DNA of 40,835 nt. Source: a bacterium. Its GTDB lineage: Bacteria; Hinthialibacterota; Hinthialibacteria; Hinthialibacterales; Hinthialibacteraceae. Position numbers and translations under genes: made by a program. Shown here one piece after another: positions 6,207-34,930 of the stretch. Each line of letters starts with the position of its first letter. The stretch's first letter is position 1. A model generated the notes under the pieces. The model ran no database searches and was not told where the DNA came from. It was given only the letters and a program-made list of their open reading frames with translations. The DNA is taken from the NCBI GenBank assembly GCA_963663405.2, contig CAXXSM010000006.1:1-40835 (forward strand). The letters run 5' to 3'.

Positions 6207-6298
6207 AACAATTGTAATACAAAAAATATCCCCAGGGAGCGCATCCTGTCAAGATCGATCTCCCTGGGGAACCACCAACGAAAGGCGGTATCCATATT

Positions 6299-7701: not shown

Positions 7702-7750
7702 AAAAACCAATGGGGGCCAGTTCGCCGGTCCCCATATAAGGAAAACTAAA

Positions 7751-10465: not shown

Positions 10466-10474
10466 GAGGGAATC

Positions 10475-12624: not shown

Positions 12625-12702
12625 TGAAGTGCCCCCCAAAATTCGGACAGTGGTTTAAGGTGGAAATCCGCCGAGTCGACAACTTGACTTGGAGGATTGA
12701 TC

Positions 12703-14152: not shown

Positions 14153-16105
14153 TCAATATGTATCCATCATCTTGTTGGAAGGGAGCGGGTAGATTAAATT
14201 ATACCGTCTTCTTAGCGTTAAGTTATCTATAACGAGTGATGATTCCGCGCCGGGGCCGCCGTTTTGGATGATGACGTATATCGGCGTTTCGGGATTCCGA
14301 ACCGTGAAATTTCCGCCAATCATTACGCGCTCAGAACGGGCGTAACTGGTTTCGGGACCGGGAAGTTCCGCGACATTTCGAAACAGCCCCACATTTTGAT
14401 AAGCGTTTGTCATCACGAATGACATTAATCCCCCGCCGCTGTATGGCGTTTCCCGGAACGCTTCCACCTCTCCGATCAGGGTCAAGGGATAGTGCTCCTC
14501 AACGCCGGTCACAATAGTTCCGATATTGGCGGCCATGTTGGTTGGTTCAATACTTATCCTGATGGCGATATCAGTCAGTGATTCAAAGAATGGAATCACG
14601 GCTCCATCCACCTTATTCATGTTGACGATAAGGTTTTCCAACTCTCCTTCGAAAGTTCCATCTACTTCCAGCGTCACCGGTTCACCCAGTTCAAGAGAAG
14701 GAGGTTCCACGATGAGGTTATCAACCCACACAGTTGAGGATAAAGTCGAGAATGGTGAGTTAACTACCTGGACAGCGACTTGCAACTTTCCGGATGGGGG
14801 CGCGTAATAGAGATCGAATCGCCGGTATTCATTGAGTGGAACTTCCGCTTCTGTTAGATTGACATAGGCTAGTTGCCCATCGATGGGGCTGTTCAGCGCA
14901 ATCAACGCTAAAGATACGTTCGATGTTGAGGCTTTAAACTGTCCGGAGATATGCGCCAAACCGTTCACCTCAACCGGTTCGAGAGAGATAATCAAATTCC
15001 CGTTGCCCGGAAACAGATCGACTGACATCCCGTTCCCATCGGTCCCGGTTCCTTCAGGTATATCACCAAACCGGACATTCCCGGATATAAATCCGGCGGG
15101 CGGGTCGGAGACAAGTTGATTGGAAGCGAGGTTACTTCCTTCAAAGGGTTGGTAATATGGAGGCGGGGCTGTTGGTTTTGGCGTAGAAGTAGGAGTAAGA
15201 GTTGGCATTGGTGTTTGTAGTGGTGGATTGGATGTTTCTATAATGGATAAATAGTTTCCTGAATTTTCATTATCAGCCCATTTTCCTTCATAATCATCAT
15301 CATAAATAAAAAAATATTCATCACCATCAGGTTCACCTTCCCTCCAATTGAAATAGGTTGAATCTTCTCCATTCGACCATATGTATTTTCCATCATTCAT
15401 GTATAGACCTATCCATAACTGATTTGTTGATAACAAAGATAAAATATTATCTACAATCCAATCGTTTTCCTCTTTGTTATTTATTGATACCAGATGACCA
15501 CCGTGAGATTTTGCTGCCTCCTCCGCTCCTTCTCTCCCCATTGCCTCTATAAGAACCATATACCCATGCCCATTGGAGGGATTAATAATCCATCCTTGTG
15601 GCGCTGGAGTCGATTCAGGTTGGTTTGTTTTTTCAATGATTGAAGCGTTGATTTGGGAAGATTCTGTATCGTACCAATTCCCCAAATCCTCCGTTTGGTG
15701 TCTATTGATTACCACATAGGGTTGATAATCTGGTTCACCACGACTCCAGTCTGTATAGATTACTGGTTCGCCACTAATCCATTCAAATTTTCCATTATCC
15801 TGAAGGAACAATCCAATCCAGAGCGTGTGCGCAGTTTGAGTATCATATTTCTCACTTGGTATTAAAGTATTGATTATCCAATCATTTTCTTCTTTGTTAT
15901 TAATTGTTACCAAATGACCACCTATAGATTGTGCGTATTCTTCGGCTTGCTCCCATCTTCCAGCTATCCCTCCTAAATCTCCTCTATAAATCATATATTC
16001 ATGTCCGTTTGTGGGATTAATGGTCCATTCTTGTGAATGAACGGAAACTACCACAACAAAACAAAAAACGAGACTCATAACGGTGATAAAGCGCAGCCTT
16101 TTCAT
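14153..16105 (-). CDS. Secreted protein: two C-type lectin domains, Pro/Thr linker, unassigned C-terminal beta-rich domain
   Basis: Start at 16105 (GGAGG RBS, signal peptide MKRLRFITVMSL); twice GGHLVxINNKEENDWI...LWIGL...W..GEPD; stop codon lies in the IS3 IRR. Confidence 0.88.
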   Translation of the reverse strand: MKRLRFITVMSLVFCFVVVVSVHSQEWTINPTNGHEYMIYRGDLGGIAGRWEQAEEYAQSIGGHLVTINNKEENDWIINTLIPSEKYDTQTAHTLWIGLFLQDNGKFEWISGEPVIYTDWSRGEPDYQPYVVINRHQTEDLGNWYDTESSQINASIIEKTNQPESTPAPQGWIINPSNGHGYMVLIEAMGREGAEEAAKSHGGHLVSINNKEENDWIVDNILSLLSTNQLWIGLYMNDGKYIWSNGEDSTYFNWREGEPDGDEYFFIYDDDYEGKWADNENSGNYLSIIETSNPPLQTPMPTLTPTSTPKPTAPPPYYQPFEGSNLASNQLVSDPPAGFISGNVRFGDIPEGTGTDGNGMSVDLFPGNGNLIISLEPVEVNGLAHISGQFKASTSNVSLALIALNSPIDGQLAYVNLTEAEVPLNEYRRFDLYYAPPSGKLQVAVQVVNSPFSTLSSTVWVDNLIVEPPSLELGEPVTLEVDGTFEGELENLIVNMNKVDGAVIPFFESLTDIAIRISIEPTNMAANIGTIVTGVEEHYPLTLIGEVEAFRETPYSGGGLMSFVMTNAYQNVGLFRNVAELPGPETSYARSERVMIGGNFTVRNPETPIYVIIQNGGPGAESSLVIDNLTLRRRYNLIYPLPSNKMMDTY

Positions 16106-16440
16106 GATCCCCTCCCAGTTAATTTGGTAACTAGGTAAATCTAGCATATGTCCAAAAAGGATTTCAAGGGATGGCGGGAACAATTTCTATAGATCGATAG
16201 AAAAATCGGTGCGGTTTAAGATCCAACCTATTCGCTCCCGGTGGATGTGGTATGGTATTCACGGAATAAAATATGGTTTTGGTGGCGCGTGAATATTGAG
16301 TCTCAATCTAAAAAAATTTTGAGCTGCGCGCCGCCGTTTTTTATGTCCATCGGCTAAGCCTTGCCACGCCTATGCGGACTTTTTCAATTTTCCAATAGAA
16401 ACAACATTGGGGAGAAAATGGCCATTTTCATAAGTAAAAA
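16060..16440. repeat. Copy A of a diverged inverted repeat (upstream region + signal peptide of the lectin genes)
   Basis: Reverse complement aligns with ~18210-18740, e.g. TTTTTGGACATATGCTAGATT; CCTATGCGGACTTTTT and ATAGAAACAACATTGGGGAGAAAA are also shared. Confidence 0.85.
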
Positions 16441-17232: not shown

Positions 17233-17862
17233 ATGACTACAATCAGAATTATAGGGTGCTTATCATTACTCATCTTTGCAACTGGGGCATTCGCGGGCGA
17301 TTTGCTGATTCGTGGTGAGGTTAATGTTCCCGATGGAACCGAGATTAATTTTACCATTCCTCTAAAAGTCCTAGAAGCAATTAAAACCTCCGGTTTAAGC
17401 GCTATGGTAAACGATAAAGAGCATCTAAATGAATTGGTGGATTCTTTAATCGCAGATCTCGCATCGATGAAAGGACGCGACCTGATTGAGATTGAAATGG
17501 ACGGTCATGGAATCTCAGTTGAGGTGGATGAAGTGGACGAAGATCAACCAGAAGAGGCCAATTTCATTCAATTGGATGTCTCGCCTGCTGGAGAAAATGT
17601 TCCTGACATTAAAATCCGTATTCCAAAAGGAATCATCTTCTTATGCACATTTATCTGCAATCAATTCATTGAAATTAATGGAGAAGAATTGTTTGATATG
17701 ATCAAACAGCAGATTAAGATGAACCTTAAACCTCCTATTTCTCAATCAGGCTGCTGCGGAGAATGCAAAGTCTCTAGTTGCCCCAAAGATGATGACGATG
17801 ATGATGATCCAGAAGAACTCGTAATAAAAATCCTTGGTAAAATCTTGAAAGAACTAAAATAA
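17233..17862 (+). CDS. Secreted hypothetical protein with acidic/Cys-rich C-terminus
   Basis: AAAGGAG RBS, signal peptide ending AFA, GCCGECKVSSC and poly-Asp. Confidence 0.75.
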   Translation: MTTIRIIGCLSLLIFATGAFAGDLLIRGEVNVPDGTEINFTIPLKVLEAIKTSGLSAMVNDKEHLNELVDSLIADLASMKGRDLIEIEMDGHGISVEVDEVDEDQPEEANFIQLDVSPAGENVPDIKIRIPKGIIFLCTFICNQFIEINGEELFDMIKQQIKMNLKPPISQSGCCGECKVSSCPKDDDDDDDPEELVIKILGKILKELK

Positions 17863-18209: not shown

Positions 18210-18740
18210 ATCTTATGAAAATGGCCGTTTTAAAGCGTGCTTTACACCTCGTTTTCTCCCCAATGTTGTTTCTATAGGAAAATTAAAAAAAGTCCGCATA
18301 GGTGTGACGAGGGTTGGCCGGTGGGCATAAAAATGCGGCGCGCCGAACAGGATTTCAAAGGTTGAGATTCTTGGTTGGTCGCCAAGACGCGCCGCCAATG
18401 TACAAAACGTGTGTATACATTACAACACTTACCGGCAGCGTATAGGGTGAGTTCAGCGAAAGCCATCGAGCTATGTTAGGGGCCTAAGAAAAACCTCTGT
18501 ATCAGGCGATGGCGAGTTAACGAATGACAAGCCGGATGATTTCACACCACGAGACAATTCCATAGATATTTCCCAGTTTTTCCATCGATCAAAATTAAAA
18601 ATTTTCCAACTATCCCTTGAAAGCGTTTTTGGACATATGCTAGATTACCTACAGTTGTAAAAATAACTGGGAGGCGATCATGGAACGACTGCGCTTCATC
18701 ACCGGTTTGAGTCTCATTTTCTGTTTTACGTTGTCGAGTT
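18210..18740. repeat. Copy B of the inverted repeat
   Basis: See 16060-16440. Confidence 0.85.
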
Positions 18741-21700
18741 TGGTTTATTCAACAGAATGGTATACAAATCCCGCCAATGGAAATCAGTACACGGTTCATA
18801 CAAATTCAACCTCATGGCAAACCGCCGAAGAGTGGGCTGTATCTCAGGGGGGTCATTTAGTCGCAATAAACGATCAGGCCGAAAACGATTGGATTGTTGA
18901 TACTCTTTTACCAGAATTTTCAAATACTCAATTGCTTTGGATTGGATTGTATAAAGATAATGGAGTTTATAATTGGGTAAATGGCGAACCGGTAATCTAT
19001 ACAAACTGGCATCCCACCCAACCGGATTCTGATAATTTGACGGTTCTTGACACTGATCCGAACAGAGGACCAGGGCTCTGGTGGTCTATATCCACAGGAA
19101 CCAGGAGTTCGATCATAGAAATCGCTTCTGGAGGACCTTACGAAACACCAACACCTTTAAATACACCTATACCGATAGATACACCTACTCCGATTCCTGA
19201 ACCGTACATCAACACACCGGAAAATTTCCCAGACCCGAATTTCCTTAACCGAGTTGAAAGTTTCATGGGAGGAGATTTCACAGAAGCCCAAGCGGCGGTG
19301 AAGACAGGTGCGTTGTACTGTCAAGGTTATAACATCCGTTCTTTGATCGGAATTGAATATTTTACCAGTATACATGATCTGTACTGCGGTGATAATCAAT
19401 TAACCAGCCTGGATGTTTCCAACAACACCGCTTTGGAAAAACTCTGGTGCTTTGATAATCAATTAACAAGCCTGGATGTCTCCAACAATACCGCTTTGGA
19501 GTCTCTCTACTGCCATGAAAATCAATTAACCAACCTGGATGTTTCCAACAACACCGCTTTGATTGATCTCCGATGCCATGTCAATCAATTAACCAGCCTG
19601 GATATCTCCAACAACACCGCTTTAGAATATCTCGTCTGCTCACAGAACCAATTAACAAGCCTGGATGTCTCCAACAACACCGCTTTGAGATATTTCTGGT
19701 GCGAAGGCAATCAATTAACGGAAATTTCAAGCCTAGTCTCCAATTCCGGTATCGGATCAGGAGATGAAGTAGATGTATCATACAACAATCTAACTTGTGA
19801 TGATTGGGATGATATTCTCATACTGAAAAACCGAATTGGCGCAGGTTTTGTATATTCCCCTCAAAATGGTTTATATCCATTTGATTGTAACAACAACATC
19901 AACACACCAGAAAATTTTCCGGACGCGAATTTTCGTAGCACCGTTGAGAATTTTATGGGTGTTCCACCAGGAGGCGATTTTACTGCTGCTGAAGCTGCAT
20001 CGAAAACGGGTATTTTAGACTGCTCCAACCTGGGTATTTTTGAGTTGGACGGCATCGAATTTTTTACTGGTATACAGAATCTCTGGTGCAATCACAATCA
20101 CTTAACCAACCTTGATGTCTCCTACAACATCGCTATGACCGAGCTCAAATGTTATTTCAATCAATTAACCAACCTGGATGTTTCTCATAACTACTCTTTG
20201 ATCTCCTTGTACTGCGACAATAATCAATTAACCGGTCTGGATGTATCGAACAACACCGTTTTAAATACCCTTTACTGCGGGGTAAATCAATTGACCAGCC
20301 TGGATCTTTCAGGTGCTGACTCACTGAAATCTCTCTGGTGTTTTAACAATAAGTTAACTAACCTGGATGTTTCCAATAATCCTGAATTGATAGATCTTAA
20401 ATGCTATTTCAATCAATTAACCAATCTGTATGTTTCTCATAACACCGCTTTAATCGCTCTCTATTGCGGTGATAACCAGTTAATCAGCCTGGATGTATCA
20501 AAAAACAGCAATTTAAATGAACTCTGGTGCGTTAATAATCAATTAAATAGCCTAGATGTTTCGAATAACATCGCTTTGAAAACTCTCCGGTGCGATTGGA
20601 ATCAATTAACCAGCTTGGATGTTTCTAGCAACATTGCTTTGACTGAACTCTGGAGTTTTGAAAATCAATTAACAAGCTTAGATATATCTAACAATATTGA
20701 TTTAAAATACCTTCATTGCTACTCCAATCAATTGAGCACTTTGGATCTATCCAATAACACTGATTTAATTGAACTCAAATGCTATTCTAATCCATTAAGC
20801 AGCCTGGATATCTCAAAAAACACTTCGCTGGTATTTCTTCATTGCTATGACAGTCAATTGACTCACTTGGATATTTCCAATAATTCCGACTTATGTTTGC
20901 TCTGGTGTTTTGAAAATCAATTAACAAGTATTGATGTTTCTAACAACATTTCTTTAAAATATCTTCGGTGTGAAAGGAACAATTTAACGGAAATTTCTAG
21001 TCTAGTCTCCAATGCCGGTCTCGGATCAGGCGATGAAGTGGATGTGTCGTACAATGATCTAACATGCGATGATTGGGATGATATTCTTACACTACAAAGC
21101 CGGATTGGATCAGGTTTTGTATATTCTCCTCAAAATGGTTTAGATCCTTTTGATTGTACATCAGTTGAAACACCTACTCCTGAACCTACTTTGATCCCAA
21201 CACCATATCCAACACCAGAATTATTCCCCTACATTGAAGACGCAAATGTGAATGTCGGTTACAACGTATATCATAATAATGGCCAGATAGATTCTTCATA
21301 TAAATTTGGCTTGAAAATAGACGCTTTTGGCGAATTCAGTGAGATGCAAACCAGCGATGTAACTCTTATGGCAAACGGAACTAGTTTAAATTTAGATTAT
21401 ATCGATGTCTCTTTAAGGGATATTATCGAAGATTCCGCTTCCCCTATCGCTAAAGAAGTAGCGGGAAATCCGGAAGACGCCTCTAAAAATTTAGAGAGCG
21501 TGGATATCCCGATTGTTCTAGGAGATCAAATATTAAACACTTTACAAGTCACTGAACCGAATTTTTATATCATAAAAGCCGGTGGAATTTTTGAAAATAA
21601 CCCGATACTAGGCGAATATGTTGTAGATGTACGAGATAGCAGTGACACAACGGCATCACATATAATCGGAACGTTGTTGGATTACCCACAGGATGCGCCT

Positions 21701-22771
21701 ATTTTAATTTATCCAGCACACACACAAGTTATCACAGAACGGACACCAACCTTTGTTTGGAATATTTTTAATTTTACCTATAATGGAAATCCTGTTGGAG
21801 TTTCAAATTATTGCCTCGATTTAGAGATCCCAAGCGGTGAATTATTTTCATTGTGGGATATTCCTTGCGATTATACGAGCGAACAATACTTTGCACATTT
21901 GTGGTGGAATCATAAGTTTGGATTGTATACATTTTTGCCTCCACTCCCAACGGGAAATCATACATTGAACCTAGGAGCATTCCAAAATATTGGCACCGGA
22001 TTTAATTTTTCTGCAAATCGAACAATTCAATTTACTGCTCCGATTGCTGAGGATATCAATAATGATGGATATGTTAATATACTAGATTTAGTAATGATTA
22101 GCATTCATTTTGGGCGACAAGTAAACGATGGACTCAATCCTATCTGGACATTCATCGGGGATGGCTCTATTCCAGATAGATCAGATGTAAATAGCGATGG
22201 AGTAGTAAATATATTGGATATGGTTCGAGTATCAATTTCTTTTGATAATGACCAGGCATTTGAAATGGACACTTATATCAATGCGAATTCAACGGATACC
22301 ACGAGTGGACAAGACACTGTTTTGGTAGTTCACTCGATAGGTCCATCCGTTAGTGGAAGTCACGTGCGTACTTTGATGCAGTTTAATGTCAATATTCATT
22401 CACCTAATTCTTTAAGTGCGATAATTAAAATCCGACTTGCTCAAGTTGATCATCCCGGTAGTGTTAAGCTGTATGGATTGGAAAAGGAATGGGATGATGA
22501 GTGGGCATCGTGGAACACTCGCATGGAGGGAATTAACTGGGAGATTCCTGGAGGAGTTTTTGATACTGACAACAAAATAACAGAGGTTCATTCGGATACG
22601 GCTAATGAAAATGGTTGGATGTCATTTGACATTACTCCATTATTTAAAAAATGGGTAAATGGGGATTTGACAAACTATGGAGTCATTCTTTATCCTGGCT
22701 CATTAGACGTTAGATTAGAATTTGATTCAATGGAATCTTCTAATCCACCCTATCTTGAAGTTACGTATTAA
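18680..22771 (+). CDS. Secreted multidomain protein: C-type lectin, two LRR blocks, one HxWWNH repeat unit, internal dockerin-like tag, C-terminal DNRLRE-like domain
   Basis: Signal peptide; GGHLVAINDQAENDWI; 21-aa (63-bp) LRRs NQLTSLDVSNNTAL..L.C; duplicated INTPENFPD cap; DTYIN...SFDITPLFKKWV..NYGVIL..PYLEVTY. Confidence 0.9.
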   Translation: MERLRFITGLSLIFCFTLSSLVYSTEWYTNPANGNQYTVHTNSTSWQTAEEWAVSQGGHLVAINDQAENDWIVDTLLPEFSNTQLLWIGLYKDNGVYNWVNGEPVIYTNWHPTQPDSDNLTVLDTDPNRGPGLWWSISTGTRSSIIEIASGGPYETPTPLNTPIPIDTPTPIPEPYINTPENFPDPNFLNRVESFMGGDFTEAQAAVKTGALYCQGYNIRSLIGIEYFTSIHDLYCGDNQLTSLDVSNNTALEKLWCFDNQLTSLDVSNNTALESLYCHENQLTNLDVSNNTALIDLRCHVNQLTSLDISNNTALEYLVCSQNQLTSLDVSNNTALRYFWCEGNQLTEISSLVSNSGIGSGDEVDVSYNNLTCDDWDDILILKNRIGAGFVYSPQNGLYPFDCNNNINTPENFPDANFRSTVENFMGVPPGGDFTAAEAASKTGILDCSNLGIFELDGIEFFTGIQNLWCNHNHLTNLDVSYNIAMTELKCYFNQLTNLDVSHNYSLISLYCDNNQLTGLDVSNNTVLNTLYCGVNQLTSLDLSGADSLKSLWCFNNKLTNLDVSNNPELIDLKCYFNQLTNLYVSHNTALIALYCGDNQLISLDVSKNSNLNELWCVNNQLNSLDVSNNIALKTLRCDWNQLTSLDVSSNIALTELWSFENQLTSLDISNNIDLKYLHCYSNQLSTLDLSNNTDLIELKCYSNPLSSLDISKNTSLVFLHCYDSQLTHLDISNNSDLCLLWCFENQLTSIDVSNNISLKYLRCERNNLTEISSLVSNAGLGSGDEVDVSYNDLTCDDWDDILTLQSRIGSGFVYSPQNGLDPFDCTSVETPTPEPTLIPTPYPTPELFPYIEDANVNVGYNVYHNNGQIDSSYKFGLKIDAFGEFSEMQTSDVTLMANGTSLNLDYIDVSLRDIIEDSASPIAKEVAGNPEDASKNLESVDIPIVLGDQILNTLQVTEPNFYIIKAGGIFENNPILGEYVVDVRDSSDTTASHIIGTLLDYPQDAPILIYPAHTQVITERTPTFVWNIFNFTYNGNPVGVSNYCLDLEIPSGELFSLWDIPCDYTSEQYFAHLWWNHKFGLYTFLPPLPTGNHTLNLGAFQNIGTGFNFSANRTIQFTAPIAEDINNDGYVNILDLVMISIHFGRQVNDGLNPIWTFIGDGSIPDRSDVNSDGVVNILDMVRVSISFDNDQAFEMDTYINANSTDTTSGQDTVLVVHSIGPSVSGSHVRTLMQFNVNIHSPNSLSAIIKIRLAQVDHPGSVKLYGLEKEWDDEWASWNTRMEGINWEIPGGVFDTDNKITEVHSDTANENGWMSFDITPLFKKWVNGDLTNYGVILYPGSLDVRLEFDSMESSNPPYLEVTY
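22049..22246 (+). repeat. Dockerin-like module, copy 1 of 6 (198 bp)
   Basis: EDINNDGYVNILDLV...DVNSDGVVNILDMVRVSISFD. Confidence 0.88.
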
Positions 22772-23225: not shown

Positions 23226-23341
23226 TAACAATATTGTCAACTGCTTATCGGTGGACCGATTCTTGGATAATAGCTACATGTGGTCCGATCCAAGCCAAAC
23301 TGGGTCATTCTTTATCCTGAAAACCTCAATGCAATAAATAT

Positions 23342-23782
23342 TCAATCAAATGCGATGGACACGCGGACCATATCCAGAATATTGACTACGCCGTCATTAT
23401 TCACATCCGCTTTGTCGGGGATGGAGCCATCGCCGATGGATGTCCAAAGTGGAATGAGACCATCATTCACTACCCGGCCAAAGTGGATACTAATTAATAC
23501 TAAATCTAAAATATTGACAAAGCCATCGCCGTTGACGTCCTCCTCTTTCACTTCCTCAAAATAGAGTTGTCCGATAAATCCAGTATAAATGACAGTCTGT
23601 CCACTTCCGGAGGATGAGGTTCCCCCGGTCTCCAGCGCGGCGAACATCGACACCGCGCCCCCACTTGAGGCTTGCGCCCCCGATCCGATCCCGCTGGGAA
23701 CAATCTCCGTGTCGGCTTGGGCGCCGAATGGGAAGAGTGAAATACATATTAACAAAGTAAGAAGCATTCTTTTTGTGTACAC
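23342..23782 (-). CDS. Small secreted Gly/Ser-rich protein with C-terminal dockerin-like tag (copy 2, 23345-23542)
   Basis: AGGAG RBS before GTG 23782; signal peptide ending AQA; tag EDVNGDGFVNILD... Confidence 0.82.
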   Translation of the reverse strand: MYTKRMLLTLLICISLFPFGAQADTEIVPSGIGSGAQASSGGAVSMFAALETGGTSSSGSGQTVIYTGFIGQLYFEEVKEEDVNGDGFVNILDLVLISIHFGRVVNDGLIPLWTSIGDGSIPDKADVNNDGVVNILDMVRVSIAFD

Positions 23783-24094
23783 TTTTTTTCTCCTATAATC
23801 TTTTATGAAAGCCAGGACTCTCATCCGCGCCATCAAAAGTAATCCTCGCGGTTGCTCGATCTTTATGTGATTCAAACCATCAAAATCCCGCGCGAGCTGG
23901 GGAGATATATCTCCCCAGCGCCCCTCTCCGGTTTCTGAACTCCAAATCTTTCCCTCTACCACCGTTCATTCCATCTTCCATGAACGGGCGGACGCCGGCT
24001 GCCGCTTCGCCGCCGCCCGTCCATTCCAGATTCCATTCTCTACCTATTCCGTTCTCCGAGTTTTCTCCCTCCAAGCCCTATAGGGTAAAAGCAC

Positions 24095-26356
24095 TCAAGG
24101 GTAAGACCTCAGGAGCCGGAAGCCAATGTAGTTGTAGCGGTAGCCGGGCGAGTCGTGGCTGCGATCCGCTGACCGGCAGTTCCTGGCGAAGTTAATCCAA
24201 CTGCCACCGCGAAGCACACAGTTCGAGCCGGTAGTAGGACCGGTTGGATCGATTTTATTTTCAATGGTATAATACGTGCTACTATACCAATCATTACACC
24301 ATTCCCAGACATTTCCACTCATATCATATAGGCCCCAGGCATTTGGTAGTTTTAAACCGGCTTCCTGTGTTTGTGACGATGAATTACTATTATACCAAGC
24401 GTAATCCCCAATCTCCGTATAACTCGGATCATCCCCCCAATAATACCGCGTCGTAGTTCCCGCCCGGCACGCGTTCTCCCATTCCGCCTCCGTCGGCATT
24501 CGATAGCCATCCGCTTCGTAATCTATCGCCCACGTTGATAGATCATACACAGGCGTCCTTCCCTCCATCTCACTTAAGCGATTGCAAAATCGCGCGCAAT
24601 CATACCAATTCACCTGCTCCACCGGATGATTGTTTCCACTAAAACCCGAAGGAGTAGTACTGATTCCCCATGGATTCCCAGCCATCACCGCCACCCATTG
24701 CGCCTGCGTCACCTCATACTTCCCCATGTAATAATCTTTCGTAATCATTACACCATGCTGGGGTTTTTCCCAATCAAACGCATCCGGATCGCTATCCGGG
24801 CTTCCCATTTTGAATACACCCGCATTTATATTAACCATCTCAAGTGGTTTGGCGCCCGCTGCCAGATTGGGTAGATTTACCGTAATCACATCCCATCCAG
24901 ATGGCCATTTCCCTTTCACCGAATCGGCCACTTTCGCATGGTCTGCATCTGTAGCCTGATCCGCGCTTGCCGCATGACCTGCGCTTGCCGCATGACCTGC
25001 GTTCGCCGCTTGATCGGCATTCGTCGCTTGATCGGCAAGATCGGCATGATCGGCATCTTTCGCTTTGAATGTATCGGCGGTTAATGTCCCCGTGACCGTA
25101 AGATTCCCAACATCAGCCGTCCCCGATACATCCATATCTCCGTGAATAAACGTCCCACCATTGGCGCGAACCACGAACTGGTTTTCGCCTGTGGATTCAA
25201 TATCCGCGTTCGTGCTGTCACCCCAGACAAAACTGCCATCGTGCAACGCTTTCGCCCTTCGGCCAGCCGCGAAACTTAAGCCTCCTTCAGCAGTGTTGCT
25301 TAATCCTCCAGGGACGGTTCCATAATTCCCACTTGCGGTGTTGCCCTGTCCTCCACCGACGGTGGCTCTCGAACCTGAGGATGTATTCCAGCCTCCACCC
25401 GCGACGTTTCCATACTCACCTTCAACCGTGTTATCAATTCCACCCGCGACGGTTCCATAATTCCCACTGGCTGTATTGCTTTGTCCTCCACTGACTGTGG
25501 CTCTATCACCGGATGCGGTATTGGTAAATCCCCCTCCTACGGTGGAATCAACTGCCCCTGCAGTATTCTGCCGGCCACCACCGATGGTTCCATAATGGGC
25601 GGTCACTTGGTTGAGTTGTCCTCCCTGTCCGCCCCCACTAATAGTCGCGCCCCACATACCATCTGTGACACTGTTTCCAGAATTCCCAGCAATAACATTA
25701 GGTGAAATAGATTTCGGTTCCAGCCGCATCACGCGTTGACTGTTCACGTGTAGTTCCAGCGCCTGGTTATCTGTCGTCCCCAGAAAATCAGTTCCGGGCG
25801 TGGTCCCCGCGTTGCCTGTCAGCCCCCAGAGCGTTGTGATATCGAAACCGGTTAGCGCGTCCGCCACATCGGCGTGATTTGATGTGGCTGCTTGATCCGC
25901 TTCCCCCGCATGCGCCGCTTCCATCGCATAGCCGACAACCAGAATCCGCTGATCGGTCGAGAGTTGCTCAAACGTCTCAGCAGGTGGAGGAGTAGAACTG
26001 AACCAGACCCGCAGATAGACTTCCGGATAACTAAACACATCCGGCGTAATCTCATCATCCATGTTGGTCAGACTGGTGTCTCCCAATCCGAGCGAGAACA
26101 ATCCCTCATTCACAGAAAGCGAGACCGCGTTCCCAGGCTCTACATTCGTCCCGGACGTCCCATCGTTGCTCCACAAAATCAATCCTGTTGAATCCACCAA
26201 AGCGAATTTGAAATGCCCTGTTCCATCATAGGGCGATCCATTCACCATCACTCGTCCCTGGTACCCCATAATCCCCGGTACCGCCGCGCCTGCTAAAGAA
26301 ACCAAAAACATGGAAACAAAAAAACCTGTGATGATACGAATCGTTCTCTTAAACAT
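24095..26356 (-). CDS. Secreted fibre/adhesin-like protein with C-terminal FGE-sulfatase (CLec-fold) domain; probable DGR target
   Basis: Signal peptide, YQGR N-terminal domain, 14-aa GGG..NTA.G repeats, Ala/Asp/His stalk, FKMGS, KYEVTQAQW, RMPTEAEWE, GLYDMSGNVWEWC, RGGSW...GFRL. Confidence 0.9.
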   Translation of the reverse strand: MFKRTIRIITGFFVSMFLVSLAGAAVPGIMGYQGRVMVNGSPYDGTGHFKFALVDSTGLILWSNDGTSGTNVEPGNAVSLSVNEGLFSLGLGDTSLTNMDDEITPDVFSYPEVYLRVWFSSTPPPAETFEQLSTDQRILVVGYAMEAAHAGEADQAATSNHADVADALTGFDITTLWGLTGNAGTTPGTDFLGTTDNQALELHVNSQRVMRLEPKSISPNVIAGNSGNSVTDGMWGATISGGGQGGQLNQVTAHYGTIGGGRQNTAGAVDSTVGGGFTNTASGDRATVSGGQSNTASGNYGTVAGGIDNTVEGEYGNVAGGGWNTSSGSRATVGGGQGNTASGNYGTVPGGLSNTAEGGLSFAAGRRAKALHDGSFVWGDSTNADIESTGENQFVVRANGGTFIHGDMDVSGTADVGNLTVTGTLTADTFKAKDADHADLADQATNADQAANAGHAASAGHAASADQATDADHAKVADSVKGKWPSGWDVITVNLPNLAAGAKPLEMVNINAGVFKMGSPDSDPDAFDWEKPQHGVMITKDYYMGKYEVTQAQWVAVMAGNPWGISTTPSGFSGNNHPVEQVNWYDCARFCNRLSEMEGRTPVYDLSTWAIDYEADGYRMPTEAEWENACRAGTTTRYYWGDDPSYTEIGDYAWYNSNSSSQTQEAGLKLPNAWGLYDMSGNVWEWCNDWYSSTYYTIENKIDPTGPTTGSNCVLRGGSWINFARNCRSADRSHDSPGYRYNYIGFRLLRSYP
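24098..24232 (-). other. DGR variable-region-like segment
   Basis: NNC/NNT codons at canonical AAY positions in a GC-rich frame; no matching template repeat in the window. Confidence 0.6.
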
Positions 26357-26506: not shown

Positions 26507-27036
26507 TTACCGAAACAATAAAATTATAATACTATATATATAGATTTACGTATATATAATAATATGAGAAAGAAAAGAGATTAATTTTACCACTTAAAAT
26601 CAACATTTGTCAATACAAAATCAGAAAAATCATAAATAAATAAATATTTTTGCAATATATCGTTACACAGTTTTTTTGATCAATTGAAACAAAAAAATAA
26701 GATATTTCTCTTTCAAAAAAATCCAGCCTTTAATCCGCTGTTAACATTCCTTATATTTATCCAGATATACCTGTAAGAAATAAAACTATAAATTCAATTA
26801 TTTATATTAAAAGACTCTCCAATTCTACAAAGTTTTATGAGTATGTCTATCGTGAATAGTCATGATTTTGAATGGCAAAAATCGCTAGTTACACTAGCTG
26901 TAACTGCTAGTAATGAATGTTAAAATTTGGGAGGGATTGATAGATTTAAAGGATGCAAATGAGAATCATAAATATTTATAAAGGTTTGAAATGGTGTAGG
27001 TTACGTCTTAGTAGTTCATGTAAAACTTAACCGAAT

Positions 27037-29958
27037 TCAATCAAATTTGATCGCTACCCGGACCATATCCAGTATATTAACCACCCCATCATCATTCACA
27101 TCTGCGCGATCCGGGATTGATCCATCCCCAATGGACGTCCAAGAAGGATCGAGTCCATCATTTACTTGGCGTCCAAAGTGAATACTGATCAGAACCAAAT
27201 CCAGGATATTGACGTAACAATCATTATTTACATCTTCAACAATAGGCGATCTACAAAGCCTGAAATAATCGTCACTGACATCCCATATCTTTTGATTCCA
27301 ATCGAATCCAAACGGATTGAATATGTATACCGCGCCTGAATTCGCTGCATTGTTGTCATGTCCACTTGCCCCTACAATGACACTGCTCTCGTACGTAGAA
27401 ATCGATATCCCGAGATGATCACCTGCGCCAATATCAGATGACATAATTTTCGTTTTATAATTCCAACTATTTCCCTCTCTCATAAAAATGTATATCGAAC
27501 CCGCATCGATTCCCAAAGCGTCAGTCTCAGGCGCGCCAATCGCCGCGATCTCTCCATACAACGCCACAGAATGACCAAAACGATCTCCTCCCGACGCATC
27601 GATAGCCAGTAATTTATCTTGCTGAGTCCATGATACGCCGATGCGAGTAAACACATAGGCGGAGCCTGAATCATCACTTACATCATCATTGTTACTCGCT
27701 CCAATTATTACGGTGTCATCGTATATCGATACGGATTCCCCGAAATTATCACCTTCAGAAGCGTCATCAGCCGTTAATTTCGCTTGTTGAGACCACGTCG
27801 TTCCATTACGAGTGAATACATAGGCTGAGCCTGACATGGGGCCTGCGTCATCATCATATGGAGATGTAGCGACAATGGTGTCTCCTGAAATGGAAACGGA
27901 GTAACCAAAGCCGTCTTCCGAAACTGCGTCGATAGGGATTAATTCCGCTTCTTCGATCCATTCAAGTCCATTCCAGATGAATACATAAACCGAACCAGCA
28001 TCCATTCCAGCGTTATCATTCGTAAAGGCGCCTACAACGATCGTATTTCCCGATATTGCGACGGAACTACCAAATCCGTCTCCCGCCGTTGCATCGCTGG
28101 CCACAAGTTTTGCTTGCTGAGTCCAGGCAGCGCCGTTCCAGGCAAAAACATAGGCCGATCCAGATTCTGAACTCATGTCCACTGTGGGGGCTCCAGCGAC
28201 AATCAAATCATCGTCTAGCGCCACGGCGGCTCCAAAGAAATCATCCTCCGCTGCGTCATCAGCCAATAACTTCGCTTGGATTTCCCATTCACTATTTTGT
28301 TTAGAAAATACATATACCGAACCGGCGTCCGGACCCGCGTCATTGTCATACTTCATCCCTGCTACAGCGATGTCTTCCTCAATTGTTACTGATCCACCAA
28401 ACTGATGATCGCGCGCCGCGTCCCCCGCTGTCAATTTTGCTCGCTGGTTCCAAACATCAATTTTTCTCTCGAATATGTAGGCAGTTCCCGCATAAATACC
28501 CCCATCGTCATCCGAATGTGCTCCTGCAACTATCGTATCTCCATAAATAACATGTCCACCAAATTGGTCTCCGGCTTCAATGTCGCTTGATAACAGTTTT
28601 GCTTGTTGAGTCCATGTACTACTATTTTTCACAAATACATACGACGCTCCTGAGTTTTCACCGATCCCATCCTGGCCATTAGCAGCAACTACTACAGTGT
28701 TTCCGGAAATGGATATACGACCTCCAAATTCATCCGCTTCATTGAGATCATCTGGAGATAATTTCGCTTCCTATACCCAGGAATTGCCGTTATTTGCAAA
28801 AATGTAGGCCGATCCAGAATTCTCACAACTGCCATCATTATGAGGAGAGCCAACCGCTATGAGATCGTCATAAATTGATACTCGCGCTCCAAAAAAATCC
28901 ATCGTAACACCGTCAGATGCCTTCAGTTTTGCTTGTTGATTCCAACTCTCACCATTTCTCTCAAACACATAGGCCGCTCCGACCCAAGCATTATCTCGGC
29001 TTCCAATAACCGCTATGTTATTCCAAATCGAAACATCCTGCCCAAAAAAATCTAATGTATGAGGATCACTCGCTGTTAGTTTTGCTTGTTGACTCCAAGT
29101 ATCTACATTTCTTACAAACACATAGGCCGATCCGGAATCTTCAAATACGTCATCATCAAAAGAGGATCCTACAATAATAGTATCTTCATAGATTGATACA
29201 GATTCTCCAAAATGGTCAAATTCAGCAGGATCACTGGCAATGAGTTTCGCTTGTTCCGTCCAAATACCACTATCTTTCACAAACACATAGGCCGATCCAG
29301 AATACGTTCCTCCATCATCATCTTCTTCAGCCCCTATGACAATGGTATCTCCATAAATCGCTACAGAACTTCCAAATTGGTCGCTTATAGCAGCGTCACT
29401 TGCAGTTAATTTTTGATATTGAATCCACCCCATCCCTTTTTTTATAAATACATAAACTGCGCCAACATCATTATCACGATGTGCGGCTATCACAACAGTA
29501 TCTCCATAAATTGCTGTATGCCTTCCAAACATATCATAATGATACGAATCGCAATTGCCATGAACGAGTTTTGTCTCTTCATGAGCAATAGCAGAAATTT
29601 CAATGGCGCATAGTGTGGAGGATATATCGGGTGTCAACCATGGATAACTGTTCAATCCAGGGATAGTTGTCACTGCGCGCTCTATCGTCTCCCAGGACAC
29701 CATTCCATCCGCGCTAAACATGAGATCAACTGAGCTTATTCCGCCTGTACATAGATATTCAATATCATTTACTGTATTCCCATCCCAAAATTCTCCTCCA
29801 TCAGGCGCGATGATTTGAATCTCCGGTAATATCTCCATAGAAGCTGTGTCAGTATCCGATAATCCCACATTAATGAAAGTATTCATAAATACAAATGTTA
29901 AACCAATTATAGCAATTCGGATATTTGCTTGTTTAAACATGATCGTTCTCCTTTCCAT
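27037..29958 (-). CDS. Secreted FG-GAP beta-propeller protein with C-terminal dockerin-like tag (copy 3, 27040-27237); interrupted by an in-frame TAG at 28771-28773
   Basis: Repeats of W.QQAKL.ASD....D.FG.SV.I....IVVGA..DD....GSAYVF; the two track ORFs share a frame and the sequence between them encodes an intact repeat. Confidence 0.85.
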
Positions 29959-29986
29959 AATTCAGGCAGAATTTGTAAAACGAGAT

Positions 29987-31594
29987 TCAATCAAACGCAA
30001 TAGACACACGAACCATATCCAAGATATTGACCACTCCATCATCATTCACATCCGCTTGATCCGGTATTGAGCCATCCCCTATGGACGTCCAGGCAGGTTC
30101 GAGTCCATCGTTCACTTGACGGCCGAAATGGATGCTGATGACGACTAAATCTAAGATATTAACAACTCCATCATTATTGATATCTTCTGGAATAGGGAAT
30201 TCGTACTGTAAGGCATTGTATGCGTTGACAAGCCCGCCAGTTACTGTTTTTCCATCCAGCGATGGAATTGGGCGAACTGTGTTTAAAATCACATCTTTTA
30301 TCTCTTGGTATGACCGATCTGGATGCTGGGCATACACCAAAGCGGCGACACCGGCCACGTGGGGTGTCGCCATCGATGTGCCACTTAGATAAATATAAGG
30401 GGGGAATCCCTTATTCAAATAAGTGGGACATGTACTTCCGACATATACTCCTGGAGCGCCAATATCTACACTGGTTTCGCCATAACAGGAAAACGAGGCC
30501 ATGTTGTCTTTATTGTCCGTAGCAGCCACAGATATGATATTGTCCAGGTCGTATGAGGATGGATAGACCGGTTGGAGATCGTTGTCACCATTGCTGTTTC
30601 CAGCGGCGGCGATGAAAAGATGCCCGATAGATTGAGACGCTTCTATCGCGTCGTAGAGCGCTTGGGTATGTCCACCAGACCAACTGTTATTTGAAACTTT
30701 CACCCCCATCATTACCGCATAATCGATCGCTTTAACCGCATAACTGGTATATCCACCATTAGGTCCCATCATCCGGAGAGGCATAAGTTTACAATTCCAC
30801 AAGACTCCCGTTACGCCTTCTTCATTATCTCCTACAGCGCCTATTATGCCAGCGACATGTGTGCCGTGATATTCGTCTGGAAGCCACGGTCGATTCCAAG
30901 GAGATGGATCGTTATCCCCTTCAAAAAAATCCCATCCATTTACATCGTCCACATATCCGTTATCATCATCGTCAATTCCGTTATCCGGGATCTCATTCGG
31001 ATTAACCCAAATGTTCGCTGCCAGGTCAGGATGTTCCATCTGGATTCCCGTATCGAGAATCGCAATCACAGTATTTGGATCTCCAGTGGAGATTGTCCAC
31101 GCTTCCGGAGCGTCGATATCCGCATCGGGTACACCCTCGTTGGCTGGTTGATCGGGGGGAATTGTCTGCCCCGTGTTATGTAATCCCCATTGCAGATCAA
31201 AATAGGTGTCATTGGGAATCAATGGAGTCGGCTCACCAGGATCTGATTGGATGAAATAATCGGGTTCTGCGTATTCAATAAATGGAAGATTACTTAACTT
31301 CTCTATCGCCTTCTCTACATCAATTCCGGTTATCTTGATATGTTCCAGTCCAGGAACAATCTTATATCCCTTAAGTTTTTTACCACCAACCAATGTTCTT
31401 GCAAGCGTCATATTCTTTGTTAAAATGTTCGTCTTGAATCGGACGAGAATGGAATCGGAAGCGAATTTAATACGAGTATTCTTATTAGATTTCTGCAACA
31501 TCTGGGATTGCGCCTTCAGCGCACATGTACATACGAATGCTATTATCGATAGTATTAGGATATGAGGATAATAACGCTGAAGACAGTATCTCAT
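29987..31594 (-). CDS. Secreted S8 subtilisin-like protease with dockerin-like tag (copy 4, 29990-30187)
   Basis: Triad ILDTGI / YHGTHVAG / GTSMATPHVAG, AAAGN oxyanion motif, propeptide YAEPDY. Confidence 0.94.
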   Translation of the reverse strand: MRYCLQRYYPHILILSIIAFVCTCALKAQSQMLQKSNKNTRIKFASDSILVRFKTNILTKNMTLARTLVGGKKLKGYKIVPGLEHIKITGIDVEKAIEKLSNLPFIEYAEPDYFIQSDPGEPTPLIPNDTYFDLQWGLHNTGQTIPPDQPANEGVPDADIDAPEAWTISTGDPNTVIAILDTGIQMEHPDLAANIWVNPNEIPDNGIDDDDNGYVDDVNGWDFFEGDNDPSPWNRPWLPDEYHGTHVAGIIGAVGDNEEGVTGVLWNCKLMPLRMMGPNGGYTSYAVKAIDYAVMMGVKVSNNSWSGGHTQALYDAIEASQSIGHLFIAAAGNSNGDNDLQPVYPSSYDLDNIISVAATDNKDNMASFSCYGETSVDIGAPGVYVGSTCPTYLNKGFPPYIYLSGTSMATPHVAGVAALVYAQHPDRSYQEIKDVILNTVRPIPSLDGKTVTGGLVNAYNALQYEFPIPEDINNDGVVNILDLVVISIHFGRQVNDGLEPAWTSIGDGSIPDQADVNDDGVVNILDMVRVSIAFD

Positions 31595-31649
31595 TTACAC
31601 TTCCTCCGAATGATTTAGATAAAGCGACTTCAAAAGTATCCTACTAACT

Positions 31650-33590
31650 TCAATCAAACGCGATTGACACACGAACCATATCCAGTACATTGACAACTCC
31701 ATCATCATTCACATCCGCTCGATCCGGGATGGAATCATCCCCTATTGACGTCCAGGAAGGATCGAGTCCATCGCTTACTTGGCGGCCAAAATGAATGCTG
31801 ATTACCACTAAATCCAAGATATTGACAACGCCATCATTGTTAACGTCTTCCGCATATTGTTTTAGTGTCAGACGGCCGGATCCAAAAAGGTTGTCTTTCC
31901 CTGGATCCCCTAAATCAACCGCCCATTGCTCGAGGAGATTTTGATAATCGGTTAATGAAAGATGTGGATATCGAGACATCAATAACGCCGCCGCACCCGC
32001 CACGTGAGGTGTCGCCGCTGAAGTGCCGCCTAGAACTGTTAAGATTTCTACAGAGACATCCGTCGGCCCACAAAGATCTGGTTTGATCCTTCCACCTAGC
32101 GACGGGGGATCGCCTCCTGGGCCATTGGTAGGTCCTTGCGAACTATACGATTTTAAAATCCCATTTTCCCATTTATCTTTTCCAATGGCTCCAACAGAGA
32201 TTGCTGTAGGTGAATTCGCGGGATTGATCAAACTCCCCGGTTTGATGTAGTAATTCATGTTTTGTGGAAAACTGAATAGTTCGAGATAACATTCGGGAGG
32301 AACGGGATCGTTGGATTCAATCCGTATCACATACCAACTATCGGATGGAGCGATCAAAGAAATCTTTTCTGTTGGTTGCTGACCGGAATAACCGTTTTGA
32401 GGATTATTCGAGACAGCCACTTCATGATAACTTTTATTGATCGAATCCCATTCCAATAATCGAAGTTCCAAATTAATCGTACAATTCGTCCAATCATTCC
32501 AACTGAGATATACGTCGATTCGATCGTCGGCTTTTGCCTGGATAAAGTTATCGGCGGAATTTCCATCCCCAGCCGGATTGGGATTTTGAAAGTCATGCAT
32601 ATAATTTGAATTCATTGCATACGGATTTGACTCCGAAATTTCAGTAGGGAAAAAAAATCCTTCATAATGTCTTTTAGCCATATTCCCCGCAGCGGTTACC
32701 CATAAGATTCCATTTTGCCGGGCATGATCAATGATATCACAAATCGGTCCAGTCCCATCATAAGGCCCTTCATTCGCCCATCCAACTGAATACGAGATGA
32801 TATCCACTTCTTGATCAATGAGCCAATTTACGGCGGCTCCCAGTTCAACAATCGTTTCGCTGTTCACTAAATATAATGTCGAATCCGGCGCCATATCATA
32901 GACAATTTCCGCGCATGCGGTACCATGATATGTACTTCCTGGAAAGACACCATTTTCCCCAGATGGATCACCATAAAAAGATTTGGTGATAAGACCGTTG
33001 GGTAAATCCGTTCCCAATAAATTTTCATAGCCGTGAAAGCCTTCATCAAGAACAGCGATTTTTACACCTTGCCCGTTATATCCAGCAATATGATATTCAT
33101 TGGCTTTGGTCAGATCGACTCCTTCGCTGATTGCGAAAGAGATCGGAGTGTTTGGAGTTTTTATATAAACGCCGGGTAGATTCGTGATACGATCGAGATG
33201 GATTAGCGGAATTTTAACTTGCAGAAAATGATTGTACGATCCTTCTACTTTTACACCAAGAGATTGGAGTGATATTTCTAGTTCTTTTGTATTACTCTCT
33301 GTGTCCACAACGATAATGATAGCAATCATCTCTCCCGGAAGGATGTTCCAATCCATTTTTCGCGGCTGTGTTTTTGAATAGGAATTCTGTTTGTGGAATT
33401 GCTCCAGATTCCACAAATTCCAATCTAATTTTAAATTGATTTCTGTTTCGTATTGATTATTATCGCCTTCTAATAATTTTTTAATGGTGGCCCCAGAATC
33501 ATTCACTCCATTAATTCGGGAAAATGAGATATCATCGATTAATAAAAGAAGAAAAAATAGAACTAAAATTTTTTTTATAGTGTTATTCAT
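31650..33590 (-). CDS. Secreted S8 protease with inserted domain and dockerin-like tag (copy 5, 31653-31850)
   Basis: AVLDEGF / YHGTACAE / GTSAATPHVAG, KPDLCGP; start moved to ATG 33590 (signal-like MNNTIKKILVLFFLLLL). Confidence 0.9.
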   Translation of the reverse strand: MNNTIKKILVLFFLLLLIDDISFSRINGVNDSGATIKKLLEGDNNQYETEINLKLDWNLWNLEQFHKQNSYSKTQPRKMDWNILPGEMIAIIIVVDTESNTKELEISLQSLGVKVEGSYNHFLQVKIPLIHLDRITNLPGVYIKTPNTPISFAISEGVDLTKANEYHIAGYNGQGVKIAVLDEGFHGYENLLGTDLPNGLITKSFYGDPSGENGVFPGSTYHGTACAEIVYDMAPDSTLYLVNSETIVELGAAVNWLIDQEVDIISYSVGWANEGPYDGTGPICDIIDHARQNGILWVTAAGNMAKRHYEGFFFPTEISESNPYAMNSNYMHDFQNPNPAGDGNSADNFIQAKADDRIDVYLSWNDWTNCTINLELRLLEWDSINKSYHEVAVSNNPQNGYSGQQPTEKISLIAPSDSWYVIRIESNDPVPPECYLELFSFPQNMNYYIKPGSLINPANSPTAISVGAIGKDKWENGILKSYSSQGPTNGPGGDPPSLGGRIKPDLCGPTDVSVEILTVLGGTSAATPHVAGAAALLMSRYPHLSLTDYQNLLEQWAVDLGDPGKDNLFGSGRLTLKQYAEDVNNDGVVNILDLVVISIHFGRQVSDGLDPSWTSIGDDSIPDRADVNDDGVVNVLDMVRVSIAFD

Positions 33591-33713: not shown

Positions 33714-34881
33714 TTAAGGCACGGCCACACAATCCTCAACAATTCCCATATCAACGAGAATTAAATACAGCCAATATGGAATTTCCACCAAATTCACCTG
33801 ATCGCCGCAGTCAATGATAATTACGATAGGAAGAGTCGGATCCGATTCATATGGAAGTAAGAACCAATTCATCGTCACGTATTCATAAATCTCTATAACA
33901 ATAGCAGGATCCCATGTGATTCCTCCGCCTTGGTAAAAACCAGCGTCCCAGGGGAATCCGTTGAAGAGCAACATCCAAATCACCGCTTGGATTTCATTGT
34001 TTGTTGCGCTTAACATAAATGGCAATTGTGGTAATTGAGAATTGTATCTATTGCGATATAACCACAAAAGATAATTAACAAGCGGGAGGTTTTGTGGATT
34101 CCCGATTAAGGGGCAATCTTGTACGGTGAGAGAGGAATAGCATCCGACATTTTGATACCACCAACCCAGTTTGATATTTGTATCGATATCCGCGCACCAA
34201 CCAGGATATATTGTGTCTCCACCCGCGGCCAACGTGGGAGTAAACCAAGCGTCAAAATAACCTAGAACACCCGGCCAATATTTACCGCTGCCATTCCCCT
34301 GCCCATCACCATTCACTAGGTAATCACGGTTGACGTCATTGCCAGTAGAGACATTGATGGTCGTATTTTCAAGCGAAACACCTGGTATCGCATTACCGGA
34401 CGAATCGGATATCAGGCAACCTGTTGGGCCGTAGGGGGCCAAAAGAGATTTCAGAAGAGTAATTTGTCGAACTTCCAGATATTTCCCGAAAACGAATGGA
34501 TACTAAATCTCCAGAAGCAGTAACAGGCACAATACCAACTTCACCTAAAGGATAGATTTTGTTGCCATTCACGAGGGTTGCAGGAGGAATTATAAATATT
34601 GGAAAAGATAAACCCGAAGGAAAAATTCCTGAATTCGTATGACTTACATATTCGAATTTGGAAGAATCGAAAAATATCTCTAATTGATATCCTCTCATCA
34701 ATTCTTGACTTTCCAAATGCACTACGACATCGAATTCATCACCCAGTCCTATGTTTTGACTTGGAGGCTGAAGTGAAAGGGTTGCCGTAGTCTGCGCGGA
34801 AACATCGTTAACGCCCCATCCGCAGATGAAAAGCAAAAGACTGCTCACAAGTACTACTTTCACACGGTTGTGTCTTTTCAT
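33714..34881 (-). CDS. Secreted cohesin-like domain + putative thioester-domain protein; one extra base at 34434-34438 splits it into two ORFs
   Basis: AAGGAG RBS, signal peptide; LSLQPPSQNIGLGDEFDVVV...GYQLEIFFDSSKFEYVS...SGDLVSIRFRE...ISF(GPY)...ISDSSGNAIP cohesin pattern; GWCAD...IQAVIW...DQVNLV. Confidence 0.7.
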
Positions 34882-34930
34882 TGCCCTATCTCCTTTTCTG
34901 TAAAAAAAAAAAGAATTTATTAAACGAGAA

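Follow-up and report, generated by a model that had tools for sequence, protein, structure and literature searches.

A fibre-like protein with a putative C-terminal variable region of a diversity-generating retroelement, on a bacterial contig that carries no retroelement cassette

Contig CAXXSM010000006.1, one whole 40,835-nt contig of a bacterial metagenome-assembled genome (MAG) that is referred to below as the window, carries on its minus strand a gene, here called P0001, whose 3′ end appears to be a target of a diversity-generating retroelement (DGR). According to our analysis, window positions 24116-24229 (minus strand) probably encode the ligand-binding face of a TvpA-like domain with the C-type lectin (CLec)/formylglycine-generating enzyme (FGE) fold, located at the C-terminus of a predicted secreted fibre-like protein. 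This segment is most likely a variable region (VR) that is a non-adjacent target of a DGR cassette located elsewhere in the genome (we put the probability of either statement at roughly 0.6). That the segment was written by a DGR, with active and fossil states taken together, is very probable. A DGR VR in a CLec/FGE C-terminus had been proposed in an earlier note on this DNA; this proposal is well supported by the match to the scaffold of bona fide DGRs, by hypervariability among orthologues, by a shift in composition and by the match to TvpA, a DGR variable protein of Treponema denticola.

A loose scaffold pattern was derived from the VR (it matches the window's own VR) and used to scan 185,579 species genomes, a set that does not include the source MAG. 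The scan retrieved 28 matches in 27 loci, none of them the source contig or from the genomes of the orthologues described below; three of the matches are template repeats (TRs) and 25 are VR-like sequences. The three TRs, found in loci L014, L022 and L027, are adenine-rich (19-20 A in 71 nt) and adjoin RVT_1 reverse transcriptases (RTs), with an HRDC-domain gene beside the TR and RT in L014 and L022 and bAvd in L027. Their translations read N-R-V-N-R-G-G-S-W-N-N-N-A-R/Q/K-N-C-R-S-A-N-R-N-N-N-S-P-G-N-R-N-N-N-L-G-F. The VR/TR scaffold A-x-N-C-R-S-A-N-R-N-N-N-S-P-G-N-R-N-N-N-L/I-G-F, with AAY codons at equal positions, is common to these DGRs and the window.

The AAY codons of the three foreign TRs (L014, L022 and, for 13 sites, L027) define 14 test sites that were set independently of the window. 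At these sites the window has the codons AAC, CTT, ATT, AAC, TTC, AAC, GAT, AGC, CAC, GAC, TAC, TAC, AAC and TAC, i.e., NNY at 14/14, while the gene-wide frequency of NNY is 0.50 (p = 6.7e-5). The VR peptide of the window, ARNCRSADRSHDSPGYRYNYIGF, fits the TR peptide of L022, ARNCRSANRNNNSPGNRNNNLGF; set against the translations of all three TRs, the VR region of the window reads NCVLRGGSWINFARNCRSADRSHDSPGYRYNYIGF. Codon usage also changes at the border of the VR. Codons 711-749 have a GC content at third positions (GC3) of 0.79 compared to 0.47 in codons 480-710 (Fisher p = 2e-4), with third-position C rising from 0.12 to 0.56 and third-position A falling from 46/231 to 1/39, a break that fits copying from a template in which adenine is avoided outside the variable codons. 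The codon string on which the earlier note was built corresponds to codons 720-747 of the open reading frame (ORF) 24095..26356 (minus strand; window positions 24199-24116), and both properties ascribed to it there, derivation of the variable codons from AAC/AAT by changes of adenines and a switch in codon endings, are confirmed by these numbers.

Two orthologues, P0002 (889 aa) and P0003 (953 aa), have the entire architecture in common with P0001. In the constant part of the FGE domain (aa 480-710) they are identical to P0001 at 199/231 and 193/229 positions, respectively, and at the 14 AAY sites at just 1/14 positions each (Fisher p = 5e-10 for P0002 and 1e-8 for P0003); at the other positions of aa 711-753, identity is 25/29 and 18/29. 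All 17 differences between P0001 and P0002 in aa 711-753 sit in codons that plausibly carry TR adenines, including the four that lie beyond the AAY sites (C/R 713, S/G 719, R/E 725 and I/V 744), where the codons could carry template adenines as AGT, AGT, AAG or AGG, and ATT. Each of the 42 residues found at the AAY sites of the three orthologues can be reached from AAY (hand count). Codons 745-753 are the same in P0001 and P0002 despite the adenines present in them, as fits a 3′ boundary of mutagenesis. By this indirect test, which combines foreign TRs with two orthologues, variation is confined to AAY codons and third positions are kept, and, as judged from sequence comparison, the hypervariability of the orthologues falls exactly on the codons that appear to be AAY-derived.

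The closest sequence to the P0001 domain in the PDB is TvpA (2y3c, E 3.4e-43), with true FGEs following at about 1e-22. An AlphaFold2 model of aa 481-753 (mean pLDDT 92.6, built on a 33-sequence alignment) also has 2y3c as its top structural match (E 1e-22, TM 0.78), although the two domains are just 35% identical in the structural alignment. In the alignment of P0001 with FGE 6muj, the C-terminal segment of the enzyme containing two cysteines, which we take to be the active-site pair, falls on a 3-residue gap and Ala724 of P0001. NCBIfam enzyme models applied to P0001 all score far under their cut-offs. A catalytic FGE/SUMF1 identity is thus ruled out by the missing Cys pair and the sub-cut-off scores, and the C-terminal domain of P0001 is instead a lectin of the TvpA type. 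The VR occupies the C-terminal end of its ORF, within a C-type-lectin fold of the FGE subclass.

One may suppose that the segment is an ordinary C-terminus of the FGE-sulfatase family that has never been a DGR target, its loops being hypervariable under diversifying selection and its resemblance to VRs being due to family conservation and chance. The backbone RGGSW...RSA.R....P.......GFR is general to PF03781 proteins, most of the comparator matches have no RT nearby, and the loose pattern itself imposed NNY on these matches, so that their NNY codons are not independent evidence. The test in the window, on the other hand, used independently set sites, and the GC3 and A3 break is abrupt and limited to the VR span. 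Among the orthologues, identity of 1/14 at the AAY sites contrasts with 86% elsewhere, and full reachability of the residues at these sites from AAY points in the same direction, as does the fact that the nearest solved relative is a DGR variable protein and not an enzyme. We therefore consider an origin that never involved a DGR very improbable.

The Pfam search places PF03781 (E 2.5e-52) at the end of P0001, where the related fibre proteins carry PF13884 (Peptidase_S74), which was not found on P0001 in this search. The preceding N-terminal region of ca. 480 aa is homologous to fibre proteins with PF13884 or PF18792. A homologue search yielded 6411 proteins at E <= 0.001 among 8000 scored, and the best 120 of these 6411 were listed. 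The names attached to homologues of the stalk are “tail fiber domain-containing protein” and, once, “trimeric autotransporter adhesin”; most carry PF13884, and one of the homologues, P0004, is 63% identical to P0001 across 56% of the query. Among the 120 homologues listed, PF03781 replaces the S74 chaperone domain in only three, P0002, P0003 and the truncated P0005. By sequence, P0001 thus appears to be the stalk of “tail fiber domain-containing” proteins without the C-terminal domain of that family. Since its N-terminus is signal-peptide-like (the translation was judged by eye) and the following region is homologous to fibre and trimeric autotransporter adhesin proteins, the suggestion of an adhesin with the VR at its tip is a reasonable one. 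Five promoter-like sites were found by consensus match in the region upstream of P0001, where 6.0 are expected. The exact P0001 sequence is absent from a collection of 15 billion proteins in which five of the seven window proteins queried are present, and no near-100% identity match to it exists among the best 120 of the 6411 homologues; the gene may be uncalled or called differently in public annotation. For each of these five proteins the longest contig on record has 40,835 nt, the length of the window.

We have searched the window for a cassette that could serve this VR. When the VR was used as a query in blastn-short with word size 7, only the self match was obtained; no TR was reported by a repeat finder, and in a scan of the window by the adenine rule the best non-self score was 84/117, with shuffle maxima of 77-81. 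RVT_1 was found by Pfam in 0/27 window ORFs of at least 120 aa, and tblastn of the window with three DGR RTs, two HRDC proteins and one Avd gave no match to an RT, HRDC or Avd. The statement that neither an RT nor a TR is in the window is thus borne out by blastn-short, the adenine-rule scan, Pfam and tblastn. It follows that the RT and TR are at least ca. 16.6 kb away on one side, ca. 24 kb away on the other, or on another contig, which would make P0001 a non-adjacent (trans) target. Non-adjacent targets are known: the accessible text of Wu et al. 2018 lists 45 of 372 DGRs with 73 such targets, and diversification in trans is reported in that of Dore et al. 2024.

The comparator loci show how VRs with this scaffold relate to their templates. 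Over 107 nt, the L014 VR differs from its own TR at 24 positions, all of them TR adenines; the VRs of L023 and L025 differ from the L022 TR at 15 and 13 positions, respectively, again exclusively at template adenines, and in a fourth VR/TR pair, in L021, 107/107 positions obey the adenine rule. The L014, L022 and L027 DGRs come from MAGs of other phyla than the source of the window, and their TRs are not cognate to its VR, with 11-16 non-adenine mismatches each over 107 nt; the FGE domains of the comparator loci are at most 53% identical to that of P0001 (best 52.6%). A TR that obeys the adenine rule is present in the fetched locus for only two of the 25 VR-like matches (L014 and L021), which suggests that distance from the cassette is common for this scaffold.

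Several of these loci deserve description. L014:1484-3236 has the order target (VR), hairpin, HRDC, RT, TR, Sel1 gene. In L005:2455-2682 and L016:9844-10071, a VR and a hairpin run directly into the same start of a Sel1 gene with no cassette in between. Since the VR and hairpin of L005 and L016 continue directly into the sequence found past the TR of L014, the HRDC-RT-TR cassette is missing from the syntenic place there. L005 and L016 each hold a second VR-like paralogue (77-79/107 identical). In one Victivallales MAG, a single TR (L022:10001-10071), located by the HRDC-RT genes and 1.7 kb from the contig end, fits the two VRs mentioned above, which lie on two other contigs (L023:891-961 and L025:2588-2658); either this DGR has several targets or the assembly is broken at repeats.

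A GC-rich imperfect hairpin follows the P0001 gene, 75 nt past the stop codon. The GC stem pointed out by the earlier note is present, its perfect 8-bp arms (ACGGGCGG / CCGCCCGT) being part of this longer structure, which as DNA has a minimum free energy of -20.2 kcal/mol (z = -3.77, 0/200 shuffles folding equally well) and is unique in the contig. Hairpins of phage DGRs have a 7-10 bp stem and a 4-nt GRNA loop and lie 4-34 bp from the VR, as described in the accessible text of Guo et al. 2011. The GGCA loop of the window hairpin fits GRNA, while the helix directly under it is a weak one of 2 bp. The stretch between the last variable codon and the hairpin includes a sequence that resembles the initiation of mutagenic homing (IMH) site as this element is defined in the accessible text of Wu et al. 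2018; the assignment as an IMH is putative.

Perfect GC-rich stems of at least 7 bp follow 9 of the 25 comparator VR-like matches and one of the three TRs. When 220-nt windows are drawn at random from the comparator loci, 15.8% contain such a stem; of those drawn from the contig under study, only 1.8% contain a stem of at least 8 bp with at least 7 G-C pairs. The L014 locus has a hairpin with a related stem ca. 58 nt past the end of the TR homology of its VR and none after its TR. L005 and L016 have a GC hairpin of the L014 kind after the VR; the hairpins of this type have loops of 7-11 nt. A GGAATGG motif precedes the hairpin in the window, L005, L014 and L016. This motif, which blastn-short did not report, should be treated as a lead only, because it was drawn post hoc from the same four sequences.

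The hairpin could instead have nothing to do with retrohoming and serve to terminate transcription of the gene or to stabilise its RNA. Such a role, which we regard as possible but the less likely one, agrees with the position of the hairpin in intergenic space past the stop, with its stability as RNA, with a distance from the VR above the published 4-34 bp (Guo et al. 2011, accessible text) and with the 15.8% background frequency of GC-rich perfect stems in comparator loci. It is at odds with the lack of a U tract, with the failure of the terminator scan to call the hairpin, with the rarity of such stems in this contig (1.8% of windows), with their presence after 9/25 comparator VR-like matches against that background, and with the similar arrangement in the bona fide L014 DGR, where a hairpin follows the VR and not the TR. 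As an intrinsic terminator, the hairpin was rejected for its missing U tract.

At the other extreme, the ca. 130 nt past the stop might constitute a portable recipient module through which a single DGR cassette could diversify genes not linked to it, in trans; the module would be made of a GGAATGG-type motif and a GC hairpin ca. 60-75 nt past the VR. This idea, which comes from the presence of a similar motif and hairpin after VRs in unrelated hosts (L005, L014 and L016, a bona fide HRDC-type DGR among them), is speculative and in our opinion improbable. If it were true, searches that start from the VR would reveal a large hidden class of remote DGR targets located on cellular surface fibres and missed by RT-anchored surveys.

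TTACCCT is present in two copies near the stop codon, as noted earlier. A 10-bp palindrome, CCCTATAGGG, overlaps the second copy. The window shows no enrichment of TTACCCT (6 occurrences versus 3.4 expected; 11/100 shuffles reach 6), and its local doubling is a post hoc observation that as a word is not beyond chance.

Several observations weigh against a currently served, remote-targeted VR. A strict “identical or A” TR pattern, which cannot match the VR itself, gave 0 matches in the 185,579 species genomes, a result that is uninformative for the source genome because the source MAG is absent from the set. A search for a TR-encoded peptide among proteins shorter than 414 aa found none (54 candidates with 44 matches, all FGE C-termini; 0/9 sequences inspected were N-rich). 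No match was obtained in phage records, and the single match in plasmid records (73%) is an FGE-family gene of a Prosthecochloris plasmid. An RT or TR was found in 0/7 VR-like loci that have full 10-kb flanks (122 stop-to-stop ORFs of at least 230 aa were checked for RVT_1), and many such VR-like sequences may be fossils or may never have been DGR targets. Within the VR of the window, Cys713 is encoded by TGT where P0002, P0003 and the three foreign TRs have Arg (CGN), which could be a non-adenine change. Finally, the hairpin lies ca. 66 nt past the inferred IMH, beyond the 4-34 bp of phage DGRs (Guo et al. 2011, accessible text), and its apical GGCA loop stands on the weak 2-bp helix mentioned above.

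The segment could also be a fossil, i.e., an orphaned VR written by a past DGR whose cassette was lost from the genome and which now changes by ordinary mutation. We consider this the main rival explanation, though an unlikely one. It accounts for the absence of an RT and TR from the entire contig and from the seven fully flanked loci, for the VRs with a GC hairpin but no HRDC-RT-TR cassette in L005 and L016 at the place syntenic with L014, and for the possible non-adenine substitution at Cys713; mobile-element genes across 1-14 kb of the contig suggest that its surroundings are prone to rearrangement. A decaying VR is, however, difficult to reconcile with the 26 adenine-free codons of the VR span, in which a hand count finds no difference between P0001 and P0002: at the 14% divergence of the constant domain, the chance of such an outcome is 0.86^26, or about 0.02. 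Third positions are still nearly free of A (1/39), the hairpin is intact, and, the MAG being fragmented, little can be concluded about its genome from what one contig lacks. The comparators that lack a cassette cut both ways: remote targeting is documented, and orphaned fossils are plausible too.

If the VR is indeed a remote target, one can expect a TR elsewhere in the genome that roughly encodes N-R/S-V-N-R-G-G-S-W-N-N-N-A-K/R-N-C-R-S-A-N-R-N-N-N-S-P-G-N-R-N-N-N-I-G-F-R and adjoins the genes of a DGR RT and an accessory protein of the HRDC or Avd type. The TR transcript would be reverse-transcribed with random misincorporation opposite adenines, and the resulting cDNA would replace the VR at this locus, which would be marked as the recipient by its IMH-like 3′ end and the hairpin behind it.

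The DGR mechanism, FGE-type targets and remote targets are all already known, and the P0001 VR belongs to the known CLec1/FGE target class, here placed on a fibre-like stalk. Compared to TvpA, a protein of ca. 300 aa with a known cognate TR and RT, P0001 differs in that the domain caps a fibre-like N-terminal region of ca. 480 aa and in that its contig shows neither partner; the targets of the Treponema DGR likewise include remote ones (Wu et al. 2018, accessible text). Mtd of Bordetella phage BPP-1, the prototype DGR target, which has an IMH and a hairpin/cruciform, resembles P0001 in having a C-terminal VR of the CLec fold at the tip of a fibre protein. Like the window, BPP-1 has a GC-rich inverted repeat past the VR, and its TR is without one according to the accessible text of Guo et al. 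2011 and Wu et al. 2018. The BPP-1 hairpin has an 8-bp stem and a GAAA loop and lies within 24 bp of the VR, whereas that of the window has a long imperfect stem and a more distant position, and the BPP-1 cassette is adjacent and phage-borne, whereas the window offers a cellular surface-protein context and no cassette within at least 16 kb. The accessible text of Dore et al. 2024 describes targets in Thiohalocapsa PB-PSB1 that, as in the window, have no local RT and/or TR and yet are diversified, some of them with FGE-type CLec domains as in P0001. According to the same text, these targets are STAND/conflict-system proteins rather than a secreted fibre, and the genome is complete, with diversification measured from metagenomes, while the window is known from the sequence of one contig.

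DGR surveys start from the RT and are, by the authors' own statement in the accessible text of Roux et al. 2021, blind to non-adjacent targets in fragmented assemblies. The window indicates that VRs can be identified even where the cassette is missing, by the codon signature, the break in composition, the hypervariability of orthologues and the downstream hairpin. The architecture is an addition as well: on a fibre-like stalk, the S74 chaperone is replaced by a variable lectin domain of the TvpA type. This arrangement, in a locus rich in dockerin and cohesin surface proteins, is suggestive of a fibre on the cell surface whose binding tip can be programmed.

Table 1. Positions of the P0001 gene, its putative variable region and associated features in the window
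Feature	Position	Strand	Details
Target gene P0001	24095..26356	-	753-aa ORF; signal-peptide-like N-terminus, Gly/Asn-rich repeat stalk, C-terminal FGE-sulfatase/CLec domain
FGE-sulfatase/C-type-lectin domain, not catalytic	24107..24841	-	aa 506-750
Putative VR	24116..24229	-	codons 710-747; variable codons inside 24125-24223
IMH-like stretch (putative)	24091..24124	-	34 nt past the last variable codon, spans the stop codon
Two TTACCCT copies and palindrome CCCTATAGGG	24076..24104	-	copies 24098-24104 and 24082-24088; palindrome 24076-24085
GC-rich imperfect hairpin	23980..24024	-	perfect 8-bp arms 24013-24020 and 23984-23991; apical loop GGCA
Second perfect palindrome, GCTGGGGAGATAT / ATATCTCCCCAGC	23896..23919	.	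13-nt overlapping arms, ca. 176 nt past the stop
Promoter-like site	26584..26613	-	TTGACA, 18 nt, TAAAAT; 11/12 consensus matches
Dockerin modules	22040-22246, 23323-23542, 27018-27237, 29968-30187, 31631-31850, 34912-35131		repeat finder and Pfam

The P0001 gene is surrounded by what looks like a cohesin-dockerin surface system, the gene itself being without a dockerin. At least six genes end in a dockerin-coding module, with 72-82% nucleotide identity between copies, and the genes that carry it include those of FG-GAP, S8 peptidase and leucine-rich repeat (LRR) proteins; a weak cohesin match was obtained at 34393-34989. Long coding tandem-repeat arrays were found at 19322-21016, 35694-39094, 39293-40536 and 27516-29529, with units of 63 nt (LRR protein), ca. 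693 nt, ca. 174 nt (PD40 protein) and 165 nt (FG-GAP proteins).

Positions 727-13813 form a mobile-element block that contains genes for a D5_N primase/helicase, a single-stranded DNA-binding protein (SSB), an ArdC-N plus zincin peptidase protein, two tyrosine recombinases, an IS91-family Y2 transposase, a ParA-like ATPase and an rve integrase. The IS91 transposase belongs to a 90% cluster of five members, one of which is present on eight contigs. Next to this block there are two divergent genes with a Lectin_C N-terminus, at 14153-16183 (minus strand) and 18680-22771 (plus strand). An imperfect inverted repeat of ca. 700 nt (15727-16418 and 18252-19028, 73-95% complementary) covers the 5′ ends and upstream sequences of both and is possibly a duplicated or invertible regulatory region. 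The 1.8-kb spacer between the repeats contains an ORF, 17233-17862, that has a start resembling a signal sequence, ends in poly-Asp and gave no Pfam match.

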